This document shows, piece after piece, positions 7,215 to 54,320 of a stretch of 64,000 bases of DNA; the first letter of the stretch is position 1; each line of letters starts with the position of its first letter. The DNA lies in the NCBI GenBank assembly GCA_035403785.1, contig DAONFW010000002.1:12676-76675 (forward strand). Direction: 5' to 3'. This DNA comes from Minisyncoccota bacterium (GTDB taxonomy: Bacteria > Patescibacteriota > Minisyncoccia > Phycocordibacterales > UBA9973). The translations under genes and the position numbers were made by a program. The notes beneath the pieces are model-generated. The model saw nothing but the letters and a program-made list of their open reading frames with translations, was not told where the DNA came from and searched no databases.

Positions 7215-8716
7215 TATTTTTTAACAATAGAAAATGATTCTATTACATCTCCCGGTGCGATTTCTATCTTTGATTCGAGCATCATTCCGAATTCAGCCCC
7301 TTCTTCAACCTCAGAAGTTTTTGATTTATTTTTTTCCAGATTTACGATTTTTCCTTTGCCAATTTCATTTTCACGACGTATTATTTTTACCGTGCTATTT
7401 AGCGCGATTCTGCCTTCTATCACTTTTCCTCCAAGAACCTGTTTTTCCTTTGTTTTACTGAAAGCTTTTAAAATTTTCGCTTTTCCTGTAATTTCTACTG
7501 TTTCTATTTTTGGTCTGCGGTTTTCCATTTCTTCTTCTAACCATTCAGTCATTTTGTAAATAATTTGGAAGAAAGAAATAGTAATACCTCTTGTTTCAGC
7601 TAGCTCAGTTGCATTTCTGTCAGCTTTTACATTAAAGCCTATTACAATGGCATTTTCACAAGAAGCAACAGACTTTATATCTGATTCTGAAATAGGCCCC
7701 ACTCCTTTTTGTACTATTCTGAATTCAGCGCTTTCGCTTGTTATTTTATTAATTTCTTTTTCGATTGCCTCTATTGAACCAAGCACATCAGCTTTTAAAA
7801 CTATTGGTATAATTTTTTTGTCAGAATTTTCAGCAACATTTTTATCGCAAATTATATTTGCTTTGAAATTTTCCGCATATTCTTCTGCGTCTCTCTTTTT
7901 TTCAAAAGACTTAAATTCTGCACCAACATTTGGCATTTTACTAAAACCAGTTAGCCTGATAGGGGAAGAGAAAGTCGCTTCGTTTATAGGTTTACCAAGA
8001 AAATTTTCCATTATACGAGTGGCACAAACTGAGTCTTCTACAACCACCGTCATGCCTTTTTTAAGAGTTCCATTTTTTATAACCAAAGAAGCTTGAATTC
8101 CTCTTTTTGGATCAAGGTTTGTTTCTATTACAGAACCAGAAGCTGTTTCGTTTGGATTACCAGTGAAATTTTCCATTTCAGCAAGAATAAGAATCAAAGA
8201 AAGTAAATTTTCAACGCCAGTTCCTTGTTTGGCTGATATTTCAGCAAATGGAATTTTTCCTCCAAAATTTTCTAGGTAAATTTCATTTTCAGCTAATTCG
8301 ATTTTTGTTTTTTCAACATTAGCGCCCGGTTTGTCTATTTTATTAATAGCGACGATGCATGGAGTTTTGCTTGCTTCGATGGTTTTCCAAGCTTCAATTG
8401 TCTGTGGTTTAACGCCGTCTTCTGCTGAAACTATTAAAATAGCGATATCTGCGACATTCGCACCACGTTCTCGCATTTTGGAAAAAGCGGCATGCCCTGG
8501 AGTATCTAAAAAAGTTATTCTTTTTTCTTCTCCTTTTTCATCTTTGTGGACAACCTCATACGCAGAAATACGTTGGGTTATTCCTCCAGCTTCTTGTTCA
8601 ACGACATTTGTTTTTCGAATATAATCGAGCAAAGTGGACTTACCATGGTCAATGTGTCCCATCACTACAACTATTGGCGGTCGTTCTGTATTCTGTTGTT
8701 TTTTCTTCTTGTCCAT
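7214..8716 (-). CDS. infB: Translation initiation factor IF-2 (minimal form lacking the N-terminal region)
   Basis: 500 aa. The G domain starts at residue ~14 (VVVMGHIDHGKSTLLD, DTPGH, NKID), followed by the IF-2 beta-barrel and C-terminal domains. Confidence 0.9.
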   Translation of the reverse strand: MDKKKKQQNTERPPIVVVMGHIDHGKSTLLDYIRKTNVVEQEAGGITQRISAYEVVHKDEKGEEKRITFLDTPGHAAFSKMRERGANVADIAILIVSAEDGVKPQTIEAWKTIEASKTPCIVAINKIDKPGANVEKTKIELAENEIYLENFGGKIPFAEISAKQGTGVENLLSLILILAEMENFTGNPNETASGSVIETNLDPKRGIQASLVIKNGTLKKGMTVVVEDSVCATRIMENFLGKPINEATFSSPIRLTGFSKMPNVGAEFKSFEKKRDAEEYAENFKANIICDKNVAENSDKKIIPIVLKADVLGSIEAIEKEINKITSESAEFRIVQKGVGPISESDIKSVASCENAIVIGFNVKADRNATELAETRGITISFFQIIYKMTEWLEEEMENRRPKIETVEITGKAKILKAFSKTKEKQVLGGKVIEGRIALNSTVKIIRRENEIGKGKIVNLEKNKSKTSEVEEGAEFGMMLESKIEIAPGDVIESFSIVKK

Positions 8717-8740: not shown

Positions 8741-9199
8741 TTATTTTACTTCTGCTTTATTTAGAGCCTCTTTTTCTTCTTCAGATAATTCATATTCTGA
8801 TTTTCCGTTTTTGATTGGTTTAGCAAAAATACTCATTCTTTCTCTAGAATATAAACTAGAAATTACGACGCCGTCTTTTTCTTCGTTTAGAATCCCAATA
8901 GCAAAACTTTGGTTACTGCCTTGGTCTGGAAAAGGATTAAATCTTATTGTTTCAACTCCACGAATGCTTTTCTTTAATTTTTTATTAACAACTACTAATT
9001 CTTTTTCAGCTGCCTCTTTTGCTATTTTTAATACAGCTATATCTTTCTCTAAAATGTTAATAGTATCTTCTAAATCTTTAGCTTTTTTACCCATGAAGAA
9101 TTTTTTTAGACGTCTTTCTGTTTTGACAATCCAAAACAATTCCACTAAAATGGCAATTCCAGCAAAAACAAAAAAAGCGATTTGGAGCTTTATATTCAT
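8741..9199 (-). CDS. Hypothetical membrane protein with coiled-coil segment
   Basis: 152 aa. N-terminal TM (IAFFVFAGIAILVELFWIV), then a Lys/Glu-rich helical region. Confidence 0.4.
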   Translation of the reverse strand: MNIKLQIAFFVFAGIAILVELFWIVKTERRLKKFFMGKKAKDLEDTINILEKDIAVLKIAKEAAEKELVVVNKKLKKSIRGVETIRFNPFPDQGSNQSFAIGILNEEKDGVVISSLYSRERMSIFAKPIKNGKSEYELSEEEKEALNKAEVK

Positions 9200-10426: not shown

Positions 10427-11053
10427 ATGGATATTAAAGAACTAAACAAAGCGCAGTTAGTAATGCTTTTGGTTTTACTTAGTTTCGTGGTTTCGATCGC
10501 GACGAGTATTATCACTGTGTCATTAATGCAAGAAGCCCCGTCTGTTTCTTTGCCGATTAATAAAATAGTAAAAGAAACGGTTGAAAAAATAGTTCCGGCT
10601 GATGTCCAAGAAGAGCCGACTTTATCATCTGAACAACAAAAATTACTTGAAGAACTGAAAGCGATAAAACCACTAACTGTTTCTGTTTACCTAAAAGGAA
10701 TCACAGAAGATAAAATATTGGGAACAGGTTTGTTTTTGGGAAATAATAAAGTAGTTGTTGCTTCACTGATTGCTGCGCCGAAAGAAGGAGAAAGTTATGT
10801 AGTAAAAAGTGTTCTAGGCGAACAAAAAGTTTCAAAAGTGACTCAAGAAAAAGATTTTACTATTATTGAAATAAATCAAGCGGAAAATACTGTAAATACT
10901 TCAAATGATAATAGTACAAATACAACAAATACAGGCACAGATACGAATACGAATCCTAATACAACAAATACAAACACAAACACAAACACAAACACGAACT
11001 CCACGACTTCGTCAGGAATAAACTTATCTACTACGAGTCCTGCGATACAATAA
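10427..11053 (+). CDS. Hypothetical membrane-anchored protein with Thr/Asn-rich C-terminal tail
   Basis: 208 aa. N-terminal TM, then a C-terminal NTSNDNSTNTTNTGTDTNTNPNTTNTNTNTNTNTN encoded by short tandem nucleotide repeats. Confidence 0.4.
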   Translation: MDIKELNKAQLVMLLVLLSFVVSIATSIITVSLMQEAPSVSLPINKIVKETVEKIVPADVQEEPTLSSEQQKLLEELKAIKPLTVSVYLKGITEDKILGTGLFLGNNKVVVASLIAAPKEGESYVVKSVLGEQKVSKVTQEKDFTIIEINQAENTVNTSNDNSTNTTNTGTDTNTNPNTTNTNTNTNTNTNSTTSSGINLSTTSPAIQ

Positions 11054-14013: not shown

Positions 14014-15690
14014 ATGAAAAAATATTTTAGCTCCTTAGGTTTTTTTCCTTTCTTTTTTGCTTTATTTTTATTTCCTTCAATTATTTTTGCACAAATAACA
14101 GAACCTGCTCAGGTTACTGGTCTTTTAGCTAGCGTTAGTGAATATAAACAAATTGATTTATCTTGGGTAGCACCAGATGATGGTGGTTCGCCAATTATTG
14201 GTTATCAAATTGAAAGAGAATCTCCAATTGGAAGTGGTTTTTCTGTTGTTATGCCAAATACAGGGGGTCCTGGAACTACTTATAGTGATACTGAACTTAA
14301 TCAAAATACAGAATATAATTATCGTGTTTCTGCTATTAACACTATCGGAACTGGTATTGCTTCAAACGAAGCAAGTGCTATTACAGAAAATGTTCTTAGT
14401 TATTTTGCAGGTGGTTCTGGTATTTCAGAAGATCCTTTTTTAATAACAACTTGTCAACAATTACAAAATGTTAATCATTTTGGAGGTCAGAGTAATCATT
14501 ATTATTTTAAAGTAATGAACGATATTAATTGTTCAGATACTGTAAATTGGAACAGCGGAGCAGGTTTTATTCCAATTGGACCATGGTTCGGTGGTTCTGT
14601 TGATGGAAATAAGAAAACAGTTTCTAATTTATTTATTAATAATTTTAATGAATCTGGAGGTACTGGACTGTTTGGATCTATAGATAGCGCAATTGTTTCA
14701 GAAATTGGTTTAGTAAATGTAGATATTACTGGATCATCAGGTGATGTTGGAGGGTTAGTTGGATATAGTATTCAAAGTCATTTAGAAAATAATTATGTAC
14801 AAGGTAACATTACTGGTGGAAGTAATGTTGGAGGGTTAGTTGGTAAAGTTTCTTCCCTTGGTCCAAAAACTATAGTTAATTCATATACCGATACGGTTGT
14901 TGTGGGGCAAGAGAATGTTGGAGGATTAGCAGGATATCTTGAAGAAGATAATATTTATAATTCATACGCTGTTGGAACAACTACTTCTACAATAAGTGGT
15001 AATGTTGGAGGGTTGGTTGGATATTGTAAAGGTGGTTATTCGAATTTAATTCATAATTCTGGTTGGTATAAAGGAAATAAAACAATTTCTGGAATTGGAT
15101 ATGATTCTGGCACAGATAATTTTGCTGAGGTAACTTATCCTGAAACAAATAAAAATGTTTTTTATGATAAAAATCATGCTATTTATACAGTAGGTGATTT
15201 ATATAAATGGTCGTTTGATGGTAATCCTTGGTATGAATATACTAATAGTTATCCAAAGTTTACAGAACAAGAAATAATTCCTGTAATTCTTCGTCACACA
15301 ACCACTGGCTCTTATCCAACAGGAAAAAATCCATTTATAACTTCTTCATCTTCTATCCCACCCACCGACTGTTTAGCAGGATATCTATTTAGTCCAAGTA
15401 CAGGTAAAGCATGTGGAACAACATCTGCTCCAACTACACCTAAATTCACATTCACAAAGAACTTAAAATACCTACAGATAGACAATGAAGTAAAAGAACT
15501 TCAAAAGTTCTTAAACACTCATGGCTATCAAGTATCTACTACAGGAGCAGGTTCACTAGATAATGAGACAAATTATTTTGGACCAAAAACTAAACAAACT
15601 GTAATTAAGTTTCAATTCGCTAATAATTTGACAGGAGATGGATTAGTTGGACCAATAACTAGGGGAGTATTGAATTCTTTGGTAAAATAA
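14014..15690 (+). CDS. Secreted protein: fibronectin type III domain + GLUG-motif repeats + C-terminal peptidoglycan-binding domain
   Basis: 558 aa. Signal peptide; FN3-like segment (DLSWVAPDDGGSPIIGYQIERE...YRVSAINTIGTG); at least five NVGGL(V/A)GY/K repeats (GLUG-like); C-terminal PG_binding_1-like segment (ELQKFLNTHGYQ...GPKTKQTVIKFQFANNLTGDGLVGPIT). Confidence 0.6.
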   Translation: MKKYFSSLGFFPFFFALFLFPSIIFAQITEPAQVTGLLASVSEYKQIDLSWVAPDDGGSPIIGYQIERESPIGSGFSVVMPNTGGPGTTYSDTELNQNTEYNYRVSAINTIGTGIASNEASAITENVLSYFAGGSGISEDPFLITTCQQLQNVNHFGGQSNHYYFKVMNDINCSDTVNWNSGAGFIPIGPWFGGSVDGNKKTVSNLFINNFNESGGTGLFGSIDSAIVSEIGLVNVDITGSSGDVGGLVGYSIQSHLENNYVQGNITGGSNVGGLVGKVSSLGPKTIVNSYTDTVVVGQENVGGLAGYLEEDNIYNSYAVGTTTSTISGNVGGLVGYCKGGYSNLIHNSGWYKGNKTISGIGYDSGTDNFAEVTYPETNKNVFYDKNHAIYTVGDLYKWSFDGNPWYEYTNSYPKFTEQEIIPVILRHTTTGSYPTGKNPFITSSSSIPPTDCLAGYLFSPSTGKACGTTSAPTTPKFTFTKNLKYLQIDNEVKELQKFLNTHGYQVSTTGAGSLDNETNYFGPKTKQTVIKFQFANNLTGDGLVGPITRGVLNSLVK

Positions 15691-41153: not shown

Positions 41154-41297
41154 TCTGTTTTATTTTGGTCACAGATAATTTCTCGCCGTCGCTCGAAATT
41201 TCCGCGACCCCGCCTCGCTGTTTTGTCAGTTGACAAAACATGCTCCGGCTCACAAATCGCCCGCAGGCAAATCAGTTTGCCTGCTTTACTCGATTTG

Positions 41298-41369
41298 TGC
41301 CCCCACTCCGAATCGAACGGGGATCTATTCCTTAGGACGGAACTGTTCTATCCATTGAACTATGGGGGC
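41298..41369 (-). tRNA. tRNA-Arg(CCT)
   Basis: Reverse complement GCCCCCATAGTTCAATGGATAGAACAGTTCCGTCCTAAGGAATAGATCCCCGTTCGATTCGGAGTGGGGGCA. Anticodon loop GTCCTAA. Confidence 0.8.
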
Positions 41370-49265: not shown

Positions 49266-49380
49266 CTAAAATATTTTTTTCATTGATTGACTAAATATTT
49301 TTTATGTGCTAATTTTATAGCTGTATTTGTACTTTAGGATAAATTAACTAAATAAAATAAAAACCTTAATTTTTGTAAAG

Positions 49381-49605
49381 ATGGAAGATAAAAATGATGA
49401 AAGTCTCGACAAGATTCCTCCAACGTTTTCGAAAGAAGATAAGTTGTTGGTAGGATTTTTTTTGGTGGCAACTATTTGTTTAGCTTTTGCTCCCACGATT
49501 TCTTCTTTTTCCCATGTTTTTGCCATTATAGTAGGAACCATTGGGGTAATTTGTGGCGTGTTGTGTTTTTTGTTAATCACAAAAGATTATTGGTTGCGTA
49601 AGTAG
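49381..49605 (+). CDS. Hypothetical small membrane protein
   Basis: 74 aa, two TM segments. No family recognised. Confidence 0.3.
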   Translation: MEDKNDESLDKIPPTFSKEDKLLVGFFLVATICLAFAPTISSFSHVFAIIVGTIGVICGVLCFLLITKDYWLRK

Positions 49606-49631
49606 TTTTTTTAAAATAAGGAGGGATACTT

Positions 49632-49847
49632 ATGAAAATAAAAATAAGTAAGCAAGTTGGAAATAAAGAAAAGTTTCAACTTGAAGAAAAACTTTTTTCT
49701 TTGTACGACCAGCGTTCCTCTTTGAGAAGGAAGATGAGAAGGGCAAAAGATAAATGCTGTTTCAAAAACAAACTAAAAAAAGTAAACAGTCAGATTCAAA
49801 ATCTGACCAAAAAAATTTTAATTCTTTCGACAACAAAAGCCGACTAA
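49632..49847 (+). CDS. Hypothetical small basic protein
   Basis: 71 aa, Lys/Arg-rich. Strong RBS AAGGAGGG 6 nt upstream of the ATG. Followed by a canonical terminator. Confidence 0.4.
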   Translation: MKIKISKQVGNKEKFQLEEKLFSLYDQRSSLRRKMRRAKDKCCFKNKLKKVNSQIQNLTKKILILSTTKAD

Positions 49848-49860
49848 TGTCGGCTTTTGT
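49834..49860 (+). terminator. Rho-independent terminator
   Basis: CAAAAGCCGAC-TAAT-GTCGGCTTTTG followed by TTATTTG. Confidence 0.6.
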
Positions 49861-49865
49861 TATTT

Positions 49866-49968
49866 GTGAGCCTTCTCGAGATAGAACCAATGCGATTCCT
49901 TACCCCGTAATGTTATTTTTAATGTTTTCAGTATAACATTTTGACCCTTCTCGTGAGATTGTAAAAAC
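49866..49968. repeat. Repeat copy A (~103 bp) of a two-copy element flanking the HD-hydrolase gene
   Basis: GTGAGCCTTCTCGAGATAGAACCA...TTTTCAG...GACCCTTCTCGTGAGATTGTAAAAACC. It contains two palindromic TCTCGNGAGA motifs (49874-49881, 49949-49958) and aligns at roughly 70% identity with copy B at 50688-50792. Confidence 0.6.
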
Positions 49969-49970
49969 CA

Positions 49971-50621
49971 TTATTGACAATCCCATTCCTTTTTAAATTT
50001 ATTTAAAAACAACTCCATAAATTCATGCCTTTCTTTAGCTATTTCTTTAGCTGTATCTGTATGCATTAAATCTTTTAATAAAAGTAGTTTTTCATAAAAA
50101 TGATTAATCGTAGTGCTTTTGTTGTTTTTATATTGTTCAGATGTTGTATGAAATTCTGGTTTAATATCAGGATTATATATTTCTCTATTTTTGCTTCCTC
50201 CGTAGGCAAATGCTCGTGCAATACCTATTGCACCGATAGCATCAAGTCTATCAGCATCTTGTAATATCTTACCCTCTAGTGTATTTATTTTATTTTCTAC
50301 ACCAGCCCCCTTGAAAGAACTATTAGCAATAATCTCACACACTTGATCAATTATTTCTTTATCAACAGATAGAGACTCAAGCCAATCTCTAGAGATTTTT
50401 GACCCAATTTCTTCATCACCATCATTAAACTTCCAATCAGCAATATCATGAAGAAGAGCAGATAATTCGACAACAAAAGAATTTGCTTTTTCTTTTTCTG
50501 CTATATTTTTTGCATTTTTCCATACTCTATAAACATGCCACCAATCATGACCAGTTCCTTCACCAGATAATTTCGATTTTGTGTATTCAATAGTCTTTTG
50601 TATTATTTCTTCTTTATTCAT
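49971..50621 (-). CDS. HD-domain metal-dependent phosphohydrolase
   Basis: 216 aa. H...HD...D pattern (GHDWWHVYRV ... LLHDIAD ... LQDADRLDAIGA). Confidence 0.75.
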   Translation of the reverse strand: MNKEEIIQKTIEYTKSKLSGEGTGHDWWHVYRVWKNAKNIAEKEKANSFVVELSALLHDIADWKFNDGDEEIGSKISRDWLESLSVDKEIIDQVCEIIANSSFKGAGVENKINTLEGKILQDADRLDAIGAIGIARAFAYGGSKNREIYNPDIKPEFHTTSEQYKNNKSTTINHFYEKLLLLKDLMHTDTAKEIAKERHEFMELFLNKFKKEWDCQ

Positions 50622-50687: not shown

Positions 50688-50792
50688 GTGAGCCCAGTCG
50701 AGATGCGACCATACGGTTCATTACCCTATAAGGTTTATTCCAAATCCTTAACATTTTCAGAACGACCCTTCTCGGGAGACTATAAAAAGTGA
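50688..50792. repeat. Repeat copy B (~105 bp)
   Basis: GTGAGCCCAGTCGAGATGCGACCA...TTTTCAG AACGACCCTTCTCGGGAGACTATAAAAAGTG. TCTCGGGAGA lies at 50770-50779. A related fragment, TGCTTCTCGTGC, lies at 50664-50675. Confidence 0.6.
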
Positions 50793-50869
50793 CAAAAGTG
50801 ACACAGAATAGCATGTAAATGTTACAGATAGTTATAACATTCCTTTTAATAATAAGGTTATAAAAACCC

Positions 50870-50897
50870 TTGACTTTTCTACAAAAAGTTTTATACT
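50870..50897 (+). promoter_or_regulatory. Near-consensus sigma70-type promoter upstream of the 51017 gene
   Basis: TTGACT-N16-TATACT read directly, about 120 bp upstream of the ATG. Confidence 0.4.
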
Positions 50898-51016
50898 ATA
50901 TACCATAAAATGTTCCTTAAAATATGGATTTTTAAGTAGTTAAATTGTTTATTTAAGCTTCTATTAATCAGGAAGTTTTAATAAACAATTTAATATTTAT
51001 CTTAAAAACTCCAGAA

Positions 51017-52183
51017 ATGAAAACAATTGATTTAAGCATTGACGACCTAAGAAATATGGTCGATGTACTATCTTCCCCGGAAGAAAAACTTCGTTTTTTA
51101 AGATCACTTTCTAAAACTAGCAACACTGCTGTCTTAGACTTAATCCTTGAACTCGACGAAGATCCCGGTACTGACACTTTGGAAAAAGGGCTGAAATTAG
51201 CTCTTAAGAAAAAAGATCAGGATTCAATTCTCAAATACGGCAGAAAAGCTATTGACTACTACATCGAAAATAATTTTTCCATTCTTCTCCCTGAGCAATT
51301 ACGTAAGTGGAAAAATGAAAAATTAACAGAGTATGCTGTAAGTAAATTCCCCCAATCTCAGACCCGGGATCACCTTTCAGAAGCAGTTGATTTTTATGAG
51401 AGAATGAAAATTGAAAATGATTCCTCAAAAAAGTTAACCGAAAAACTATTGGCCATGGAAATTCGTGATTCCCAGTATCCCTTTACTGCCTGCAAAATTT
51501 TAATGAAATTAGGCAGACATACCGAAGCAATTAAGCATTATCTTAAAATTGGTGAACCTTATTGTTTAAGAGATGCATGGAATATTGCCAGGGAGCATGT
51601 ACCTGAAATGAAAATAGGGATCGCCGAAAAAATTTGGAAAATGGGTGTTACAGAAGATACGCCTCTGGTAGTCTTCGTTGAGTCGGCATTACTGTTGGGT
51701 TACTCCGAAAGAGCAATAATACTTTTAAAAAAGTATATCGCAGGCTTGAAACCAAATACCGGCAGATTTTTTATTGGGCTTGTTGAGGCACTCAAGATTC
51801 TCGACTTATCTTATGAAATAAACAAGGTACTCGATATTGCTCGTAAACACACAAATTCCATTCACTCGTTTCCGTGGGATGCTTATAAAGAAATGGTTCA
51901 ATTGTGTGATGTTGCTGGAAAGGAAGAAGAAAGCAAACAGTGGATGATTACTAGGTTGAAGTATGAAATTGCTGAAACCAACCCTACTAATGTGCCGAGC
52001 ACGATTGCTGAATATGAAGAAAAAACTGGCGACAAATCACTTCGCATTCTGCTTTTCCCGCATTTTGAAAAACAACAAATGTATGGAGAAGCCGAAAAAC
52101 TTGCAGTTGAATTCGGTATGCCAGAAAAAGCTGAAAAGTATGCCAAGCTTGCTCAATTGTTTGTATCATCACACGTGAAATAA
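51017..52183 (+). CDS. Hypothetical all-helical protein of visibly higher GC content and different codon usage than its neighbours (probably horizontally acquired)
   Basis: 388 aa. Frequent CCC/CCG/CTC/TCC/GGC codons that are rare elsewhere in the window. No recognisable catalytic motif. Confidence 0.5.
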   Translation: MKTIDLSIDDLRNMVDVLSSPEEKLRFLRSLSKTSNTAVLDLILELDEDPGTDTLEKGLKLALKKKDQDSILKYGRKAIDYYIENNFSILLPEQLRKWKNEKLTEYAVSKFPQSQTRDHLSEAVDFYERMKIENDSSKKLTEKLLAMEIRDSQYPFTACKILMKLGRHTEAIKHYLKIGEPYCLRDAWNIAREHVPEMKIGIAEKIWKMGVTEDTPLVVFVESALLLGYSERAIILLKKYIAGLKPNTGRFFIGLVEALKILDLSYEINKVLDIARKHTNSIHSFPWDAYKEMVQLCDVAGKEEESKQWMITRLKYEIAETNPTNVPSTIAEYEEKTGDKSLRILLFPHFEKQQMYGEAEKLAVEFGMPEKAEKYAKLAQLFVSSHVK

Positions 52184-52206
52184 TCACAAGTGGTAATTAA
52201 AGCATT

Positions 52207-52241
52207 CAAGCCGTTTCCTTTTGGGGACGGCTTGTTTTTTT
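52207..52241 (+). terminator. Strong rho-independent terminator
   Basis: CAAGCCGTTTCC-TTTTGGGG-ACGGCTTG followed by T7. Confidence 0.65.
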
Positions 52242-52333
52242 ATCAGAAACATTAAAAATCTAGCTAAGATATTATAAAAGTTACCAACACTTTAAGGCTT
52301 AGCAAAAGACTAAATCTCTGACATTATTAAGAT

Positions 52334-52492
52334 ATGGAAACAAGCACAATTGGTAGAATTCATAGTCCATTATTAATAACGGAAACAAGAATTAGGTACT
52401 GTTTATATGCTCGTAAATCGACCGAATCCGACGAGCAACAAGCATTATCAATAGATTCTCAAGTTAAGGAAGGAAGCGAGTTTTCAGAATGA
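52334..52492 (+). pseudogene. N-terminal remnant (52 codons) of a serine recombinase (resolvase/integrase) gene
   Basis: Translation METSTIGRIHSPLLITETRIRYCLYARKSTESDEQQALSIDSQVKEGSEFSE* contains the serine-recombinase active-site pattern Y-x-R-x-S-T-(x)-Q...S-x-x-x-Q. It is truncated after about 50 aa by a TGA inside a 13-bp hairpin. Confidence 0.45.
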
Positions 52493-52504
52493 AAACTCGC
52501 TTCC
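52472..52504 (+). terminator. Hairpin terminating the recombinase remnant
   Basis: GGAAGCGAGTTTT-CAGAATG-AAAACTCGCTTCC: a perfect 13-bp inverted repeat. Confidence 0.45.
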
Positions 52505-52535
52505 TATTTCTAATTTCCACAATCTCTCTTTAGGT

Positions 52536-52606
52536 GACCCTACCGGGAATCGAACCCGGATTACCGGCTTGAAAAGCCGATGTCCTAACCGTTAGACGAT
52601 AGGGCC
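52536..52606 (-). tRNA. tRNA-Glu(TTC)
   Basis: Reverse complement GGCCCTATCGTCTAACGGTTAGGACATCGGCTTTTCAAGCCGGTAATCCGGGTTCGATTCCCGGTAGGGTCA. Anticodon loop TTTTCAA. Confidence 0.8.
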
Positions 52607-52690
52607 AAATTTAGAACATAGATATAATAACATTTTTTTAATAAAATGCAAAAGTTTTTGAAAAATGATAGATTAAATAAAGGGTAAATA

Positions 52691-52713
52691 GAACGAAGTG
52701 GGGAGGCGTGGCT
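52691..52713 (+). repeat. Partial duplicate of the tRNA-Ser 5' end plus 11 bp of its upstream flank
   Basis: GAACGAAGTGGGGAGGCGTGGCT (52691-52713) versus GAACGAAGTGAGGAGGCGTGGCT (52826-52848). The second copy runs into the real tRNA-Ser, which starts at 52837. Confidence 0.45.
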
Positions 52714-52836
52714 ATGAAATATGAACTGCTTCATATTTCATCCGGTTTTGCAAAAGCAAAAATGTTTGATATTCTTTGGGGTGAAAACATAGGGAAGGGT
52801 CCGAAAGGGCACGAAGCAAGCTGGCGAACGAAGTGA

Positions 52837-52923
52837 GGAGGCGTGGCTGAGTGGTTGAAGGCACCGGTTTCGAAAACCGGCATTGGGGAAACCTAATCGT
52901 GAGTTCAAATCTCACCGCCTCCG
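52837..52923 (+). tRNA. tRNA-Ser(CGA)
   Basis: GGAGGCGTGGCTGAGTGGTTGAAGGCACCGGTTTCGAAAACCGGCATTGGGGAAACCTAATCGTGAGTTCAAATCTCACCGCCTCCG. Anticodon CGA, long variable arm. Confidence 0.85.
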
Positions 52924-52977
52924 CAAAATTGAATCGTTTACATATTAATAGAATAGTTTTAATATATTTAATATAAT

Positions 52978-53352
52978 ATGAGAATGGAAAATTTATTTAA
53001 TTTTAATAAGAAAAAAATAGATGCAGGAAGGCAGCTTAATTTAAATTTCACTGATTTAGAAAAAGACAAAGACGGTAAGACTATTTATGATTTTTTAGAA
53101 AAAGCTGGAATAAAAGAAGGGGATGAAGATTATAAAAAAATCTTAAATAATCTTTCTTTTAGAAATGGTTATTTTTATGTTGGGGATGTTTATATAAAAG
53201 AATATTTATATTGGAAAAAAGTTTACAGTGAAGACAAAAAAAAGCTTTCTGATTCAAGTGATAAATTTGGCGTTAAAAAAGTACCAAAAAAGAAAATAAA
53301 TAGACATCTTTCGGATAAAGAAAGAGATTTTTTGTACGGCCACTGGGACTAA
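52978..53352 (+). CDS. Hypothetical small protein
   Basis: 124 aa, Lys-rich. No recognisable domain. Confidence 0.35.
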   Translation: MRMENLFNFNKKKIDAGRQLNLNFTDLEKDKDGKTIYDFLEKAGIKEGDEDYKKILNNLSFRNGYFYVGDVYIKEYLYWKKVYSEDKKKLSDSSDKFGVKKVPKKKINRHLSDKERDFLYGHWD

Positions 53353-54320
53353 TTTCTTTTCTTTTTATTATATATTTCAGGTTCTGAAGACTTGTACACA
53401 ACAAAAGTAGATATTCCCAAGCTAGGATATCTCCCAACTTTCGTATCTTTAATTAGACTCATTGGAGCTATTTTGGGTTCCTTGTCTTTTTCATAACTGT
53501 AATTTTGCCCAATGTTTACATTTCCAACTCTTGCGCAATCTTTTTGTTTAAATCCCATATTGTATATCACTAAAAGTCTGTATATTTCTTGTCCCAAATT
53601 TCCAGTTGTGTGATTACCGGGAGTTGCTTGCATGTGCTTTTCATCTTTATTTTTATTTTGAGTTTCTTTTGGGGCTAAATATAATCCTGGTTCGTAAATT
53701 TTGTTTATTTCTTTTTTAACTTCTTGATCAAAAGTATTAATTTCAAATTTTGGGGTTACACCTTCTTTGTATAGAAGCGCCATTGCTGCGCCTGGAACCA
53801 TTGCTCCGCCATCTATAGAAACAGGGATGTAATAGGCGATATAATCACCAGATTCTAAAGCTTCTTTTATTGTTTTTCCTTCAATCATTGAAGGCTGGTT
53901 TAATTCTGCTTCTGTTGGAAATTCAATATTACCAAACTCTATATGCATTCCTTTTTCGTTTGATATAGAATCAAGTTTCTGTGCGCTGAAATAATTTTTT
54001 ACTTCGCCAAATGTTTCATGAAAAGTTGAGTCTAATTTTTCTGGAGATATTTTTTCAAATTTATTAATATCTTCCCAAGTCATTTCGTATACGTCTTGCC
54101 CTAGAATTTCTCTAGCTTCTTTTTCTGCTTGAGCCTCTGTTTGATATTTTTTTAATAAATCCTGATTTGGTTTTTCCGAAGATGCGAAAGAAGTTTGTCC
54201 AAAAGCTTCAGCTGTCCCAAAAGATAGCACTCCGCTTAGCAACATTTTAATCATAATGTTTTTTATATTATGACTTTTCTTTTCTGGGCTAATATTTTTT
54301 TCTTTGAAAAAATTAAACAT
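53349..54320 (-). CDS. Secreted hypothetical protein
   Basis: 323 aa. Signal peptide (MLLSGVLSFGTAEAFGQ). No recognisable catalytic motif. Confidence 0.4.
   Translation of the reverse strand: MFNFFKEKNISPEKKSHNIKNIMIKMLLSGVLSFGTAEAFGQTSFASSEKPNQDLLKKYQTEAQAEKEAREILGQDVYEMTWEDINKFEKISPEKLDSTFHETFGEVKNYFSAQKLDSISNEKGMHIEFGNIEFPTEAELNQPSMIEGKTIKEALESGDYIAYYIPVSIDGGAMVPGAAMALLYKEGVTPKFEINTFDQEVKKEINKIYEPGLYLAPKETQNKNKDEKHMQATPGNHTTGNLGQEIYRLLVIYNMGFKQKDCARVGNVNIGQNYSYEKDKEPKIAPMSLIKDTKVGRYPSLGISTFVVYKSSEPEIYNKKKRN

Follow-up and report, generated by a model that had tools for sequence, protein, structure and literature searches.

A probable decayed serine-recombinase element beside tRNA-Glu, and a separate repeat at tRNA-Ser, in a Minisyncoccota genome

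A recombinase gene remnant converges on tRNA-Glu

We analysed a 64,000-nucleotide stretch of the genome of a Minisyncoccota bacterium (hereafter the window; contig DAONFW010000002.1, positions 12,676 to 76,675) and describe here the interval at 49.3–54.3 kb, which lies between a nucleotidyltransferase gene and the gene for thioredoxin reductase (TrxB). Two tRNA genes stand in this interval, namely tRNA-Glu(UUC) on the minus strand (52533–52606) and an intact tRNA-Ser(CGA) on the plus strand (52837–52924; 58 bits), and a 52-codon open reading frame (ORF; 52334–52492) on the plus strand runs toward the former, preceded by an ORF that encodes a protein of 388 aa (51017–52183). Decayed integrases next to tRNA genes are a textbook sign of past horizontal transfer, and a first-pass annotation of the window had taken the region from 49.3 to 52.9 kb to be an accessory island that has lost its mobilisation machinery. 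The findings set out below make it likely that an element encoding a large serine recombinase (LSR) once resided beside tRNA-Glu(UUC) and has since decayed within a mosaic hotspot, and that the repeat found at tRNA-Ser is a separate scar.

The 52-codon ORF carries YARKSTESDEQQALSIDSQ, which had been read as the serine-recombinase serine pattern of a gene fragment. A profile search of PHROGs placed the ORF in the integrase family phrog_95 (E=1.7e-5), and a protein search with it returned 35 relatives, every one of them 44–90 aa long; these have RYCLYARKSTESDEKQALSIDSQVKEM in common, with a near-invariant core of RYCLYARKSTESDEKQALSIDSQVKEMLQIAERE...RRESHSAKDSGQRPVF, and then split at differing points into unrelated tails. 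It is PHROGs and these direct homologues that identify the ORF, since searches of Pfam (Resolvase included), NCBIfam and PDB sequences with the 52-aa peptide alone gave no match, and several of the related short fragments do carry a precomputed match to PF00239. Across 17 aligned relatives YARKST...SIDSQ is invariant, and the motif Y-x-R-x-S-[ST] followed by S-x-x-x-Q is present. Scanning the viral contigs of IMG/VR with an alignment of relatives yielded 64 LSR loci, and when the full-length relatives from these loci were compared with the window by tblastn, 63 of the 64 matched the site of the 52-codon ORF and nowhere else, with E values down to 5e-12. The fragment call is therefore borne out, and the match is to a large serine recombinase specifically.

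The homology has a sharp end. At both the nucleotide and the protein level, similarity to approximately 45 LSR genes stops at 52470/52471, after codon 46, at what is the first base of a hairpin (52471–52505, plus strand) with 16 pairs and a T-rich tail. This hairpin holds the stop codon of the ORF (52490–52492), as had been noticed, although its stem had been put at 13 bp. Upstream, approximately 80 nt before the start codon are also homologous in one of the relatives (L021), so that the recognisable remnant covers 52253–52471 on the plus strand, comprising that upstream region and codons 1–46 with the YARKS catalytic-serine motif. A complete resolvase domain, of approximately 140 aa, is not present, because homology ends past residue 46, and tblastn with all 64 proteins found no second LSR piece (C-terminal part, Recombinase domain or zinc ribbon) anywhere in the 64-kb window. 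Judging from these homologies, the 52-codon ORF is the N-terminus of an LSR of approximately 440 aa. Given that the nucleophile motif has been kept and some 90% of the protein lost, it is a pseudogene remnant rather than a functional member of the family; activity is impossible from residues 1–46 alone.

The intact relatives show how such a gene is normally placed. A complete frame of 424–547 codons is found in 58 of the 64 IMG/VR loci; in the other six the frame is cut off by the contig end (four loci) or comes to a stop at 230 codons (two loci). The protein of one of them, L022, has the architecture Resolvase, Recombinase and Zn_ribbon_recom (PF00239, PF07508 and PF13408); its nearest named relatives are the CcrB and XisF models, and among solved structures it is nearest to the SPbeta YokA recombinase and the TP901-1 integrase. 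Where tRNA genes occur in the LSR loci, 16 of 17 are downstream of the recombinase gene and on the opposite strand, so that gene and tRNA converge. Four lie 95–143 bp from the recombinase stop codon: tRNA-Glu(ttc) in L022, tRNA-Gln in L047 and L068, and tRNA-Asp in L049. The remnant in the window likewise converges on the 3′ end of its tRNA-Glu, the same tRNA species as in L022, with its stop codon 40 bp away. Thus the juxtaposition of fragment and tRNA-Glu, including the 40-bp distance, was correctly seen at the outset, and it reproduces the layout of intact relatives.

In L022 (1910–9466) the intact integrase beside tRNA-Glu(ttc) marks the edge of an island with cargo resembling that of a defence island. 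On its integrase side this island carries a type III restriction-modification pair and a reverse transcriptase; beyond the tRNA come host-type genes, among them those for an aminoacyl-tRNA synthetase and an Na/Pi transporter.

Copies of this integrase family that are truncated, frameshifted or cut by insertion sequences are common in metagenome assemblies. The relative in L001 (6001–7049) is interrupted by an IS3-type element; that in L003 (6001–7331), which lies near a very large RHS/YD-repeat protein gene, is frameshifted and followed by separate Recombinase and Zn_ribbon_recom pieces; in L081 a related fragment overlaps a Resolvase ORF of 202 aa; and other fragments stop at contig ends. The differing break points among relatives are accounted for by the IS3 insertion, the frameshifts and the contig ends. 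One viral contig (L027) has two integrase N-terminal coding regions in inverted orientation (8031–8096, plus strand; 10501–10581, minus strand), the second of them at the contig end.

tRNA-Glu and tRNA-Ser are the fixed points of a variable interval

To place the remnant in its genomic setting we compared the window with related genomes, in which the flanking nucleotidyltransferase protein is 45–78% identical. In a tblastx synteny map the closest genome found (L009; JBDRFV010000036; 78% identity) shares the gene order of the window from the nucleotidyltransferase through tRNA-Glu, tRNA-Ser and TrxB to FtsZ and beyond. The content of each gap along this order differs. Between the nucleotidyltransferase gene and tRNA-Glu, L009 has a His-phosphatase gene and a 104-aa ORF, and the window has two orphan small ORFs, an HD-domain phosphohydrolase gene, the 388-aa gene and the LSR stump. 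Between the two tRNA genes L009 has a lyase gene of 493 aa, where the window has 230 bp without a gene. From tRNA-Ser to TrxB, finally, there is nothing in L009 and a lineage-specific segment of 1.4 kb in the window (52934–54320), which is absent from L009 and also from L089, a short contig described in the next section; its two orphan ORFs, of 124 aa (plus strand) and 323 aa (minus strand), match no family, and no att repeat was found in the segment.

The left edge of the variable region lies at 49286–49865, where synteny with both L009 and a second genome, L010 (71% identity), stops; for L010 it is lost at 49.28 kb exactly. This stretch contains the two small ORFs (49381–49605 and 49632–49847, both on the plus strand), for which no homologues were found, and a bidirectional hairpin at approximately 49834–49858. 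In a further relative, L015, a different ORF, of 207 aa, stands between the nucleotidyltransferase gene and its tRNA-Glu. Gene order is otherwise intact from 54.3 to 60.8 kb in the comparison with L009 and from 35 to 46 kb in that with L010, and the break coincides with the interval bounded by the tRNAs. Among the features that persist are tRNA-Glu, which is an anchor also in L009, L015 and L089, and the AT-rich region (15% GC; 52607–52690) that holds the divergent promoters of tRNA-Glu and tRNA-Ser and is partly conserved in L009 and L089. Furthermore, L009 has a 19-nt copy of the 3′ end of its tRNA-Glu approximately 150 nt from that tRNA (8814–8832 versus 8645–8663), which suggests that this tRNA served as an insertion site in the sister lineage too. 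The strain has been assembled on 11 contigs, from samples that include JGI 3300010352 and ENA ERZ27257423. Six of these places, from several samples, were retrieved and agree at 100% identity over the shared region, so the structure is no assembly artefact.

On the strength of these comparisons, the DNA at 49.3–54.3 kb behaves as a tRNA-anchored variable hotspot in which tRNA-Glu and tRNA-Ser alone appear to be fixed. The accessory island proposed in the first-pass annotation is upheld insofar as the region is not conserved in L009 or L010 and differs in L015 as well. Its right-hand limit of 52.9 kb did not hold, in that variable DNA continues to 54.32 kb. The loss of mobilisation machinery was also rightly called, no recombinase being left in the window by tblastn.

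A repeat of the tRNA-Ser 5′ end flanks a folded insert

The start of tRNA-Ser is duplicated, as originally reported: a direct repeat of 23 nt, with 22 of 23 positions identical, occurs at 52691–52713 and 52826–52848 on the plus strand. The downstream copy consists of 11 nt of upstream flank and tRNA-Ser nt 1–12, and the upstream copy of the same 11 nt followed by a copy of nt 1–12. These are the two matches in the window, against 0.00 expected from 100 shuffles. Between the copies lie 112 nt that occur nowhere else in the window; their GC content is 41%, as against 15% in the adjacent spacer.

A homologous locus of another genome, the 579-bp contig L089, was reached through the sole relative of a 40-codon ORF (52714–52836) that lies in this segment. 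It opens within tRNA-Glu, whose 5′ part it holds, and continues through the promoter region to GGAGGCGTGGCT, which repeats tRNA-Ser nt 1–12. An insert of 122 nt comes next, then tRNA-Ser, a GC-rich spacer of 130 nt, 21 nt copied from the 3′ end of tRNA-Ser and, last, the end of TrxB. The same promoter, in L009, lies directly against nt 1 of tRNA-Ser, and this uninterrupted site indicates that the insertion in the window and L089 is the derived state. The repeat of the window is 23 nt long and not 12 because the last 11 nt of the insert stand before the upstream copy as well.

The two inserts share a predicted fold of five helices and 39 pairs (52702–52836, plus strand, in the window). Every one of the 39 pairs can form in both genomes; four have changed at both partners and three at a single partner, with none lost. 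One GNRA loop shows a GAAA-to-GAGA change, and several of the G-U pairs are placed so as to favour the tRNA strand. We found no promoter-like sequence between the insert and tRNA-Ser, so the tRNA is probably transcribed through the insert. A minimum-free-energy fold of the whole precursor suggests that the duplicated 5′ segment could compete for the 3′ acceptor strand of the tRNA, and helix 1 of the insert pairs nt 6–12 of that duplicated segment.

The 40-codon ORF, which is a gene call in public annotations, is probably non-coding, because its relative differs from it mainly at helix-compensating positions and because the ORF of L089 runs into the tRNA. The duplicated tRNA-Ser 5′ end (GGAGG) stands 7 nt ahead of its ATG (52702–52716) and mimics a Shine-Dalgarno sequence.

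Two further origins of the insert were considered and rejected. It is not a decayed tRNA copy, its similarity to the tRNA body being no greater than that of shuffled sequences (p = 0.13–0.28), nor is it a remnant of the lyase gene of L009, with which the 40-aa ORF gives a BLASTP E value of 40 and no Pfam match. No credible Rfam family matched the insert, exact-pattern scans of IMG/VR with the 23-mer and three insert pieces returned nothing, and a search of approximately 0.9 Mb of locus sequence with a covariance model of the insert brought no copy beyond those of the window and L089.

The first-pass annotation had assigned this repeat to the same island as the integrase. As far as the sequences tell, it is instead a second scar, independent of the tRNA-Glu element, because it has the wrong orientation for the LSR layout, because serine-recombinase elements leave very short repeats (PMC5704250), and because the insert is conserved in L089.

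Folded blocks adjoin other tRNA genes

A different structured block stands just 3′ of three different tRNAs in three genomes. Its core is AGCCGGA, hairpin, GAGGCGGGGTCGCG, and the block reads AGCCGGA, variable hairpin, GAGGCGGGGTCGCGGAATTTTT...AAAAAAATATCnGTGACC. The copy in the window (41162–41290, minus strand) lies directly 3′ of tRNA-Arg(cct) (41297–41369), that in L089 (356–450) 3′ of tRNA-Ser and that in L009 (8706–8807) 3′ of tRNA-Glu. Their shared part contains a 15-bp hairpin with compensatory changes, seven pairs having changed on both sides. In two of the genomes, L009 and L089, the block is followed by a copy, 19–21 nt long, of the 3′ end of the same tRNA (in L089, 443–463 versus 293–313); beside tRNA-Arg in the window no tRNA repeat was found. 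In L010 no block intervenes between tRNA-Arg and the protein-coding match next to it. The block has no match in Rfam, an exact-pattern scan of IMG/VR did not find its core, and the approximately 0.9 Mb of locus sequence contain three copies. In addition, L033 carries 17-nt copies of both ends of a tRNA-Ser(gct) (14053–14069 and 14403–14419), approximately 100–165 nt away.

Going by these copies, which in the related genomes lie 100–170 nt from the parent tRNA, insertions in this group of bacteria seem to have fallen often at tRNA ends, the unusual 5′ side included. By analogy, the structured segments flanked by tRNA ends resemble very small att-flanked remnants of the cis-mobilizable element (CIME) type and the "partial tRNAs" of Prochlorococcus islands. 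We entertain, as a doubtful generalisation, the idea that Paceibacteria-type genomes carry folded-RNA insertions of approximately 110–150 nt at the ends of tRNA genes, which duplicate 12–21 nt of the terminus. If true, these would represent a new miniature mobile unit that targets tRNAs, or functional RNA modules in tRNA leaders and trailers, and not random leftovers.

The 388-aa protein gene forms a self-contained unit

Immediately before the recombinase remnant lies a unit (50869–52258, plus strand) that consists of a promoter (50870–50897), a palindrome in the 5′ untranslated region (50940–50993), the ORF for the 388-aa protein and a terminator (52207–52234) with a 12-bp stem and a run of seven T residues; the promoter and the terminator had both been recognised from the outset. 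Matches of the promoter type are not in themselves informative, there being 18 in the window against 20.9 expected in shuffled sequences, but the site TTGACT-N16-TATACT gains credibility from its two hexamers, which are conserved in the homologous loci L004 and L005. The palindrome, with arms of 22 nt, is conserved in both loci too, with symmetric substitutions, and could be an operator or a regulatory RNA hairpin for the gene.

The higher GC content and different codon usage that had been ascribed to this gene are confirmed in part. Its G+C content at third codon positions (GC3) is 0.338, compared with a mean of 0.235 (sd 0.049, z = 2.1), which ranks second of 57 ORFs and highest among real genes, as the top-ranking ORF is a spurious one over tRNA-Phe. 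The overall GC content of the gene is 0.373 against a mean of 0.331 (z = 1.5) in a window of 32.6% GC, and in 1-kb sliding windows the region reaches 0.37, whereas 30.5–31.5 kb reaches 0.383. The composition signal is thus real but modest, and plain GC content is not unique to the region.

A protein identical to that of the window is on public record from a Candidatus Paceibacterota MAG. The protein has two close homologues, with 70% and 67% identity, which are found in unrelated gene contexts (L004 and L005). Nucleotide homology with L004 is limited to 50869–52258, that is, from the −35 hexamer to approximately 25 nt beyond the terminator, with unrelated flanking genes, and the L004 copy too exceeds its surroundings in GC content (0.392 versus 0.297). 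On these three grounds, the sharp limits of homology, the unrelated contexts and the GC content above that of the surroundings in L004 as well, the gene behaves as a self-contained, apparently horizontally moving unit of promoter, gene and terminator. It abuts the integrase unit (from approximately 52253 to 52471) at a sharp junction. The 388-aa ORF had been regarded as cargo of the integrative element, a role that found no support, since neither it nor the HD gene has a homologue in any of the 64 LSR loci.

An exhaustive HMMER search gave 57 cluster representatives of the family, most of them approximately 370–430 aa and near full-length and about a dozen shorter or partial. Any single TPR model is matched by up to 13 of 40 family members, the window protein itself falling below Pfam thresholds. 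An AlphaFold (AF2) model built on 40 sequences has 23 helices (pLDDT 93.3), and its best PDB structure matches are TPR superhelices (OGT, LGN and IFIT), with low TM-scores of 0.2–0.36. No catalytic domain was found in Pfam, NCBIfam or PHROGs. The protein is best described as a predicted TPR scaffold protein. With PADLOC, none of the TPR, HD, 124-aa, 323-aa and small ORFs matched a defence system.

Origin of the locus

We propose that tRNA-Glu(UUC) once received, beside its 3′ end, an integrative element, either a prophage or a genomic island. This element would have encoded an LSR of approximately 440 aa from a gene at the end of the element that converged on the tRNA, as in the intact relatives. 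A later deletion of approximately 1.2 kb may then have taken codon 47 and all that followed, and so joined codon 46 to the terminator hairpin, 27 nt from the tRNA, at the junction now seen. With no recombinase and no detectable att repeat, the remaining DNA would be immobile. The DNA between the nucleotidyltransferase gene and tRNA-Glu would be a mosaic of independent pieces, namely the two small ORFs, the repeat-bracketed HD gene and the TPR unit. At tRNA-Ser, an insert of 112–122 nt would have entered at the 5′ end and duplicated nt 1–12, so that the original promoter presumably now reads through the insert, which has become the 5′ leader of the tRNA. The most likely reason for the upkeep of its fold by compensatory changes would be that folding sequesters the duplicated 5′ segment, which could otherwise compete with the true acceptor stem. 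We consider this account as a whole, a decayed LSR element, a mosaic hotspot and an independent tRNA-Ser scar, to be probable. The core of the first-pass interpretation, a decayed integrative element with an integrase stump by a tRNA in a variable region, is accordingly supported in part, and the main feature belongs to a known type, that of decayed integrative elements linked to a tRNA. Known categories fall short of a full explanation only for the folded insert in the leader of tRNA-Ser.

Several observations weigh against this account. Within 3 mismatches, the window contains no second tRNA-Glu 3′ end, and it contains no second tRNA-Ser 3′ end, so that no far boundary of an element was found; a missing att repeat is nevertheless compatible with a serine recombinase, because such enzymes leave very short repeats (PMC5704250). 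No gene at 49.3–52.25 kb resembles anything in the 64 LSR loci. The HD gene and the small ORFs are of ordinary host composition. The left flank is covered by two informative relatives only, L009 and L010, and at 71–78% protein identity some rearrangement is to be expected. As for the insert, its covariation comes from two sequences only, and its score is equalled or exceeded by 28 of 500 shuffles. Folded by itself, the window copy does no better than shuffled sequences (z = −1.3), while the L089 copy has z = −3.1.

Among the alternatives, it is conceivable, if rather unlikely, that the tRNA-Ser repeat and its folded insert amount to a functional RNA or to a small mobile unit that is not autonomous, with tRNA ends as its target. 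It would be moved by a recombinase supplied in trans, in the manner of att-flanked elements whose own integrase is lost. Conservation of the insert in a second genome with compensatory changes speaks for this, as do the different folded block 3′ of three tRNAs in three genomes, two of them with a tRNA 3′-end copy of 19–21 nt, and the 17-nt copies of both tRNA-Ser(gct) ends in L033; moreover, decay from independent starting points to similarly small sizes would be a coincidence. Set against these are the low copy numbers, two for the insert and three for the 3′ block in approximately 0.9 Mb with none in IMG/VR, the lack of an Rfam match, the block at tRNA-Arg of the window that has no tRNA repeat, and the fact that no candidate recombinase was identified.

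A second alternative, which we consider improbable, is that the locus is ordinary chromosome, its differences from L009, L010 and L015 reflecting a general loss of gene order and the recombinase fragment being an isolated pseudogene. The modest identity of the flanking protein in relatives (45–78%), the usual composition of the HD gene and small ORFs and the want of an att boundary are all in keeping with it. General loss of order, however, does not readily explain why order is kept at 54.3–60.8 kb with L009 and at 35–46 kb with L010 and is broken exactly at the tRNA-bounded interval, why the position of the fragment relative to tRNA-Glu copies that of intact integrases, or why the TPR unit is so sharply limited and found in other contexts elsewhere.

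Two more explanations are very hard to sustain. That the integrase gene was split by its own integration, with attP inside the gene as in archaeal SSV-type elements and the gene restored on excision, would suit an N-terminal piece abutting a tRNA and the many short relatives in the protein search, but the break points of the relatives vary and have identifiable causes (IS3, frameshifts, contig ends), integrated elements have intact genes next to a tRNA, on the far side of which host genes follow, and the C-terminal part is absent from the 64-kb window. It is equally implausible that the upstream copy of the tRNA-Ser 5′ end is left over from a tandem tRNA-Ser duplicate, as a short resemblance to the anticodon arm (CCGGTTTTGCAAA versus CCGGTTTCGAAAA) might hint, or from a lyase gene like that between both tRNAs in L009, given the sharp edges of the repeat and the negative tRNA and lyase comparisons reported above.

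Relation to known integrative systems

The relatives of the fragment have the same three-domain architecture as characterised LSRs, among them SprA/YokA of SPbeta, the TP901-1 integrase, CcrB of SCCmec and XisF, and the fragment keeps their Y-A-R-x-S. It differs from these in that residues 1–46 are all that the window retains, that the family is short (approximately 430–450 aa) and that it adjoins tRNA genes. The usual integration site of characterised serine-recombinase elements lies within a protein-coding gene (PMC5704250). A compact serine integrase family of approximately 440 aa thus recurs by tRNA genes (Glu, Gln, Asp, Ser, Asn and Trp) in the viral contigs that carry it. Adjacency to tRNA genes is unusual as a serine-integrase target and could help to define the boundaries of prophages and islands in poorly annotated genomes.

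Like CIMEs, which are att-flanked remnants that have lost their integration genes (PMC5704250), the tRNA-Ser scar is flanked by repeats and has no recombinase, and an empty site exists in L009. CIMEs are normally kilobases long and situated at the 3′ end of their target, whereas the segments described here measure 112–150 nt, and one of them lies at a tRNA 5′ end and has a sequence that forms a conserved RNA fold. The tycheposon islands of Prochlorococcus are tRNA-seeded genomic islands that hold decayed elements, with partial tRNAs scattered in them (bioRxiv 10.1101/2020.12.28.424599). The window shares with these its setting in a streamlined genome and a variable island that tRNA genes anchor. 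It belongs to another phylum and involves another integrase family; it shows neither an intact element nor a replication module, and its partial tRNA copy is of the 5′ end.

The tRNA copies can also be set beside the classical scheme for tyrosine integrases. Work by Williams in Nucleic Acids Research in 2002 is said to have placed their integration into tRNA genes at anticodon-loop, T-loop or 3′-end sites. The tRNA 3′-end copies of 19–21 nt in L009 and L089, which start from the T-loop, would fit the T-loop type, whereas the repeat in the window comprises tRNA nt 1–12 and upstream flank and parts the tRNA from its promoter, an arrangement that the classical scheme avoids.

More broadly, the locus suggests that very small genomes, too, keep tRNA-anchored hotspots of gene turnover. 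Of its features, the folded insert that is conserved in the leader of tRNA-Ser, along with the comparable blocks 3′ of other tRNAs, most deserves further study.

Direct repeats bracket the HD gene

The HD-domain phosphohydrolase gene of the hotspot (49971–50621, minus strand) encodes 216 aa and has a host-like GC3 of 0.167; its product matches Pfam HD (E=5.9e-14) and, below cutoff, a PRK10119-like model of NCBIfam. It is bracketed by direct repeats of approximately 105 nt (GTGAGCC...GACCCTTCTCGTGAGACTATAAAAAGTGACA) on the plus strand, copy A at 49866–49967 and copy C at 50688–50790, and a third copy is present in an unrelated genome (L008, 1613–1718). Rfam has no family for the repeats, and neither strand shows a convincing conserved RNA fold. 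At 50694/50695, within copy C, two assemblies of the strain made independently of each other break, which suggests population variants or recombination between the copies.

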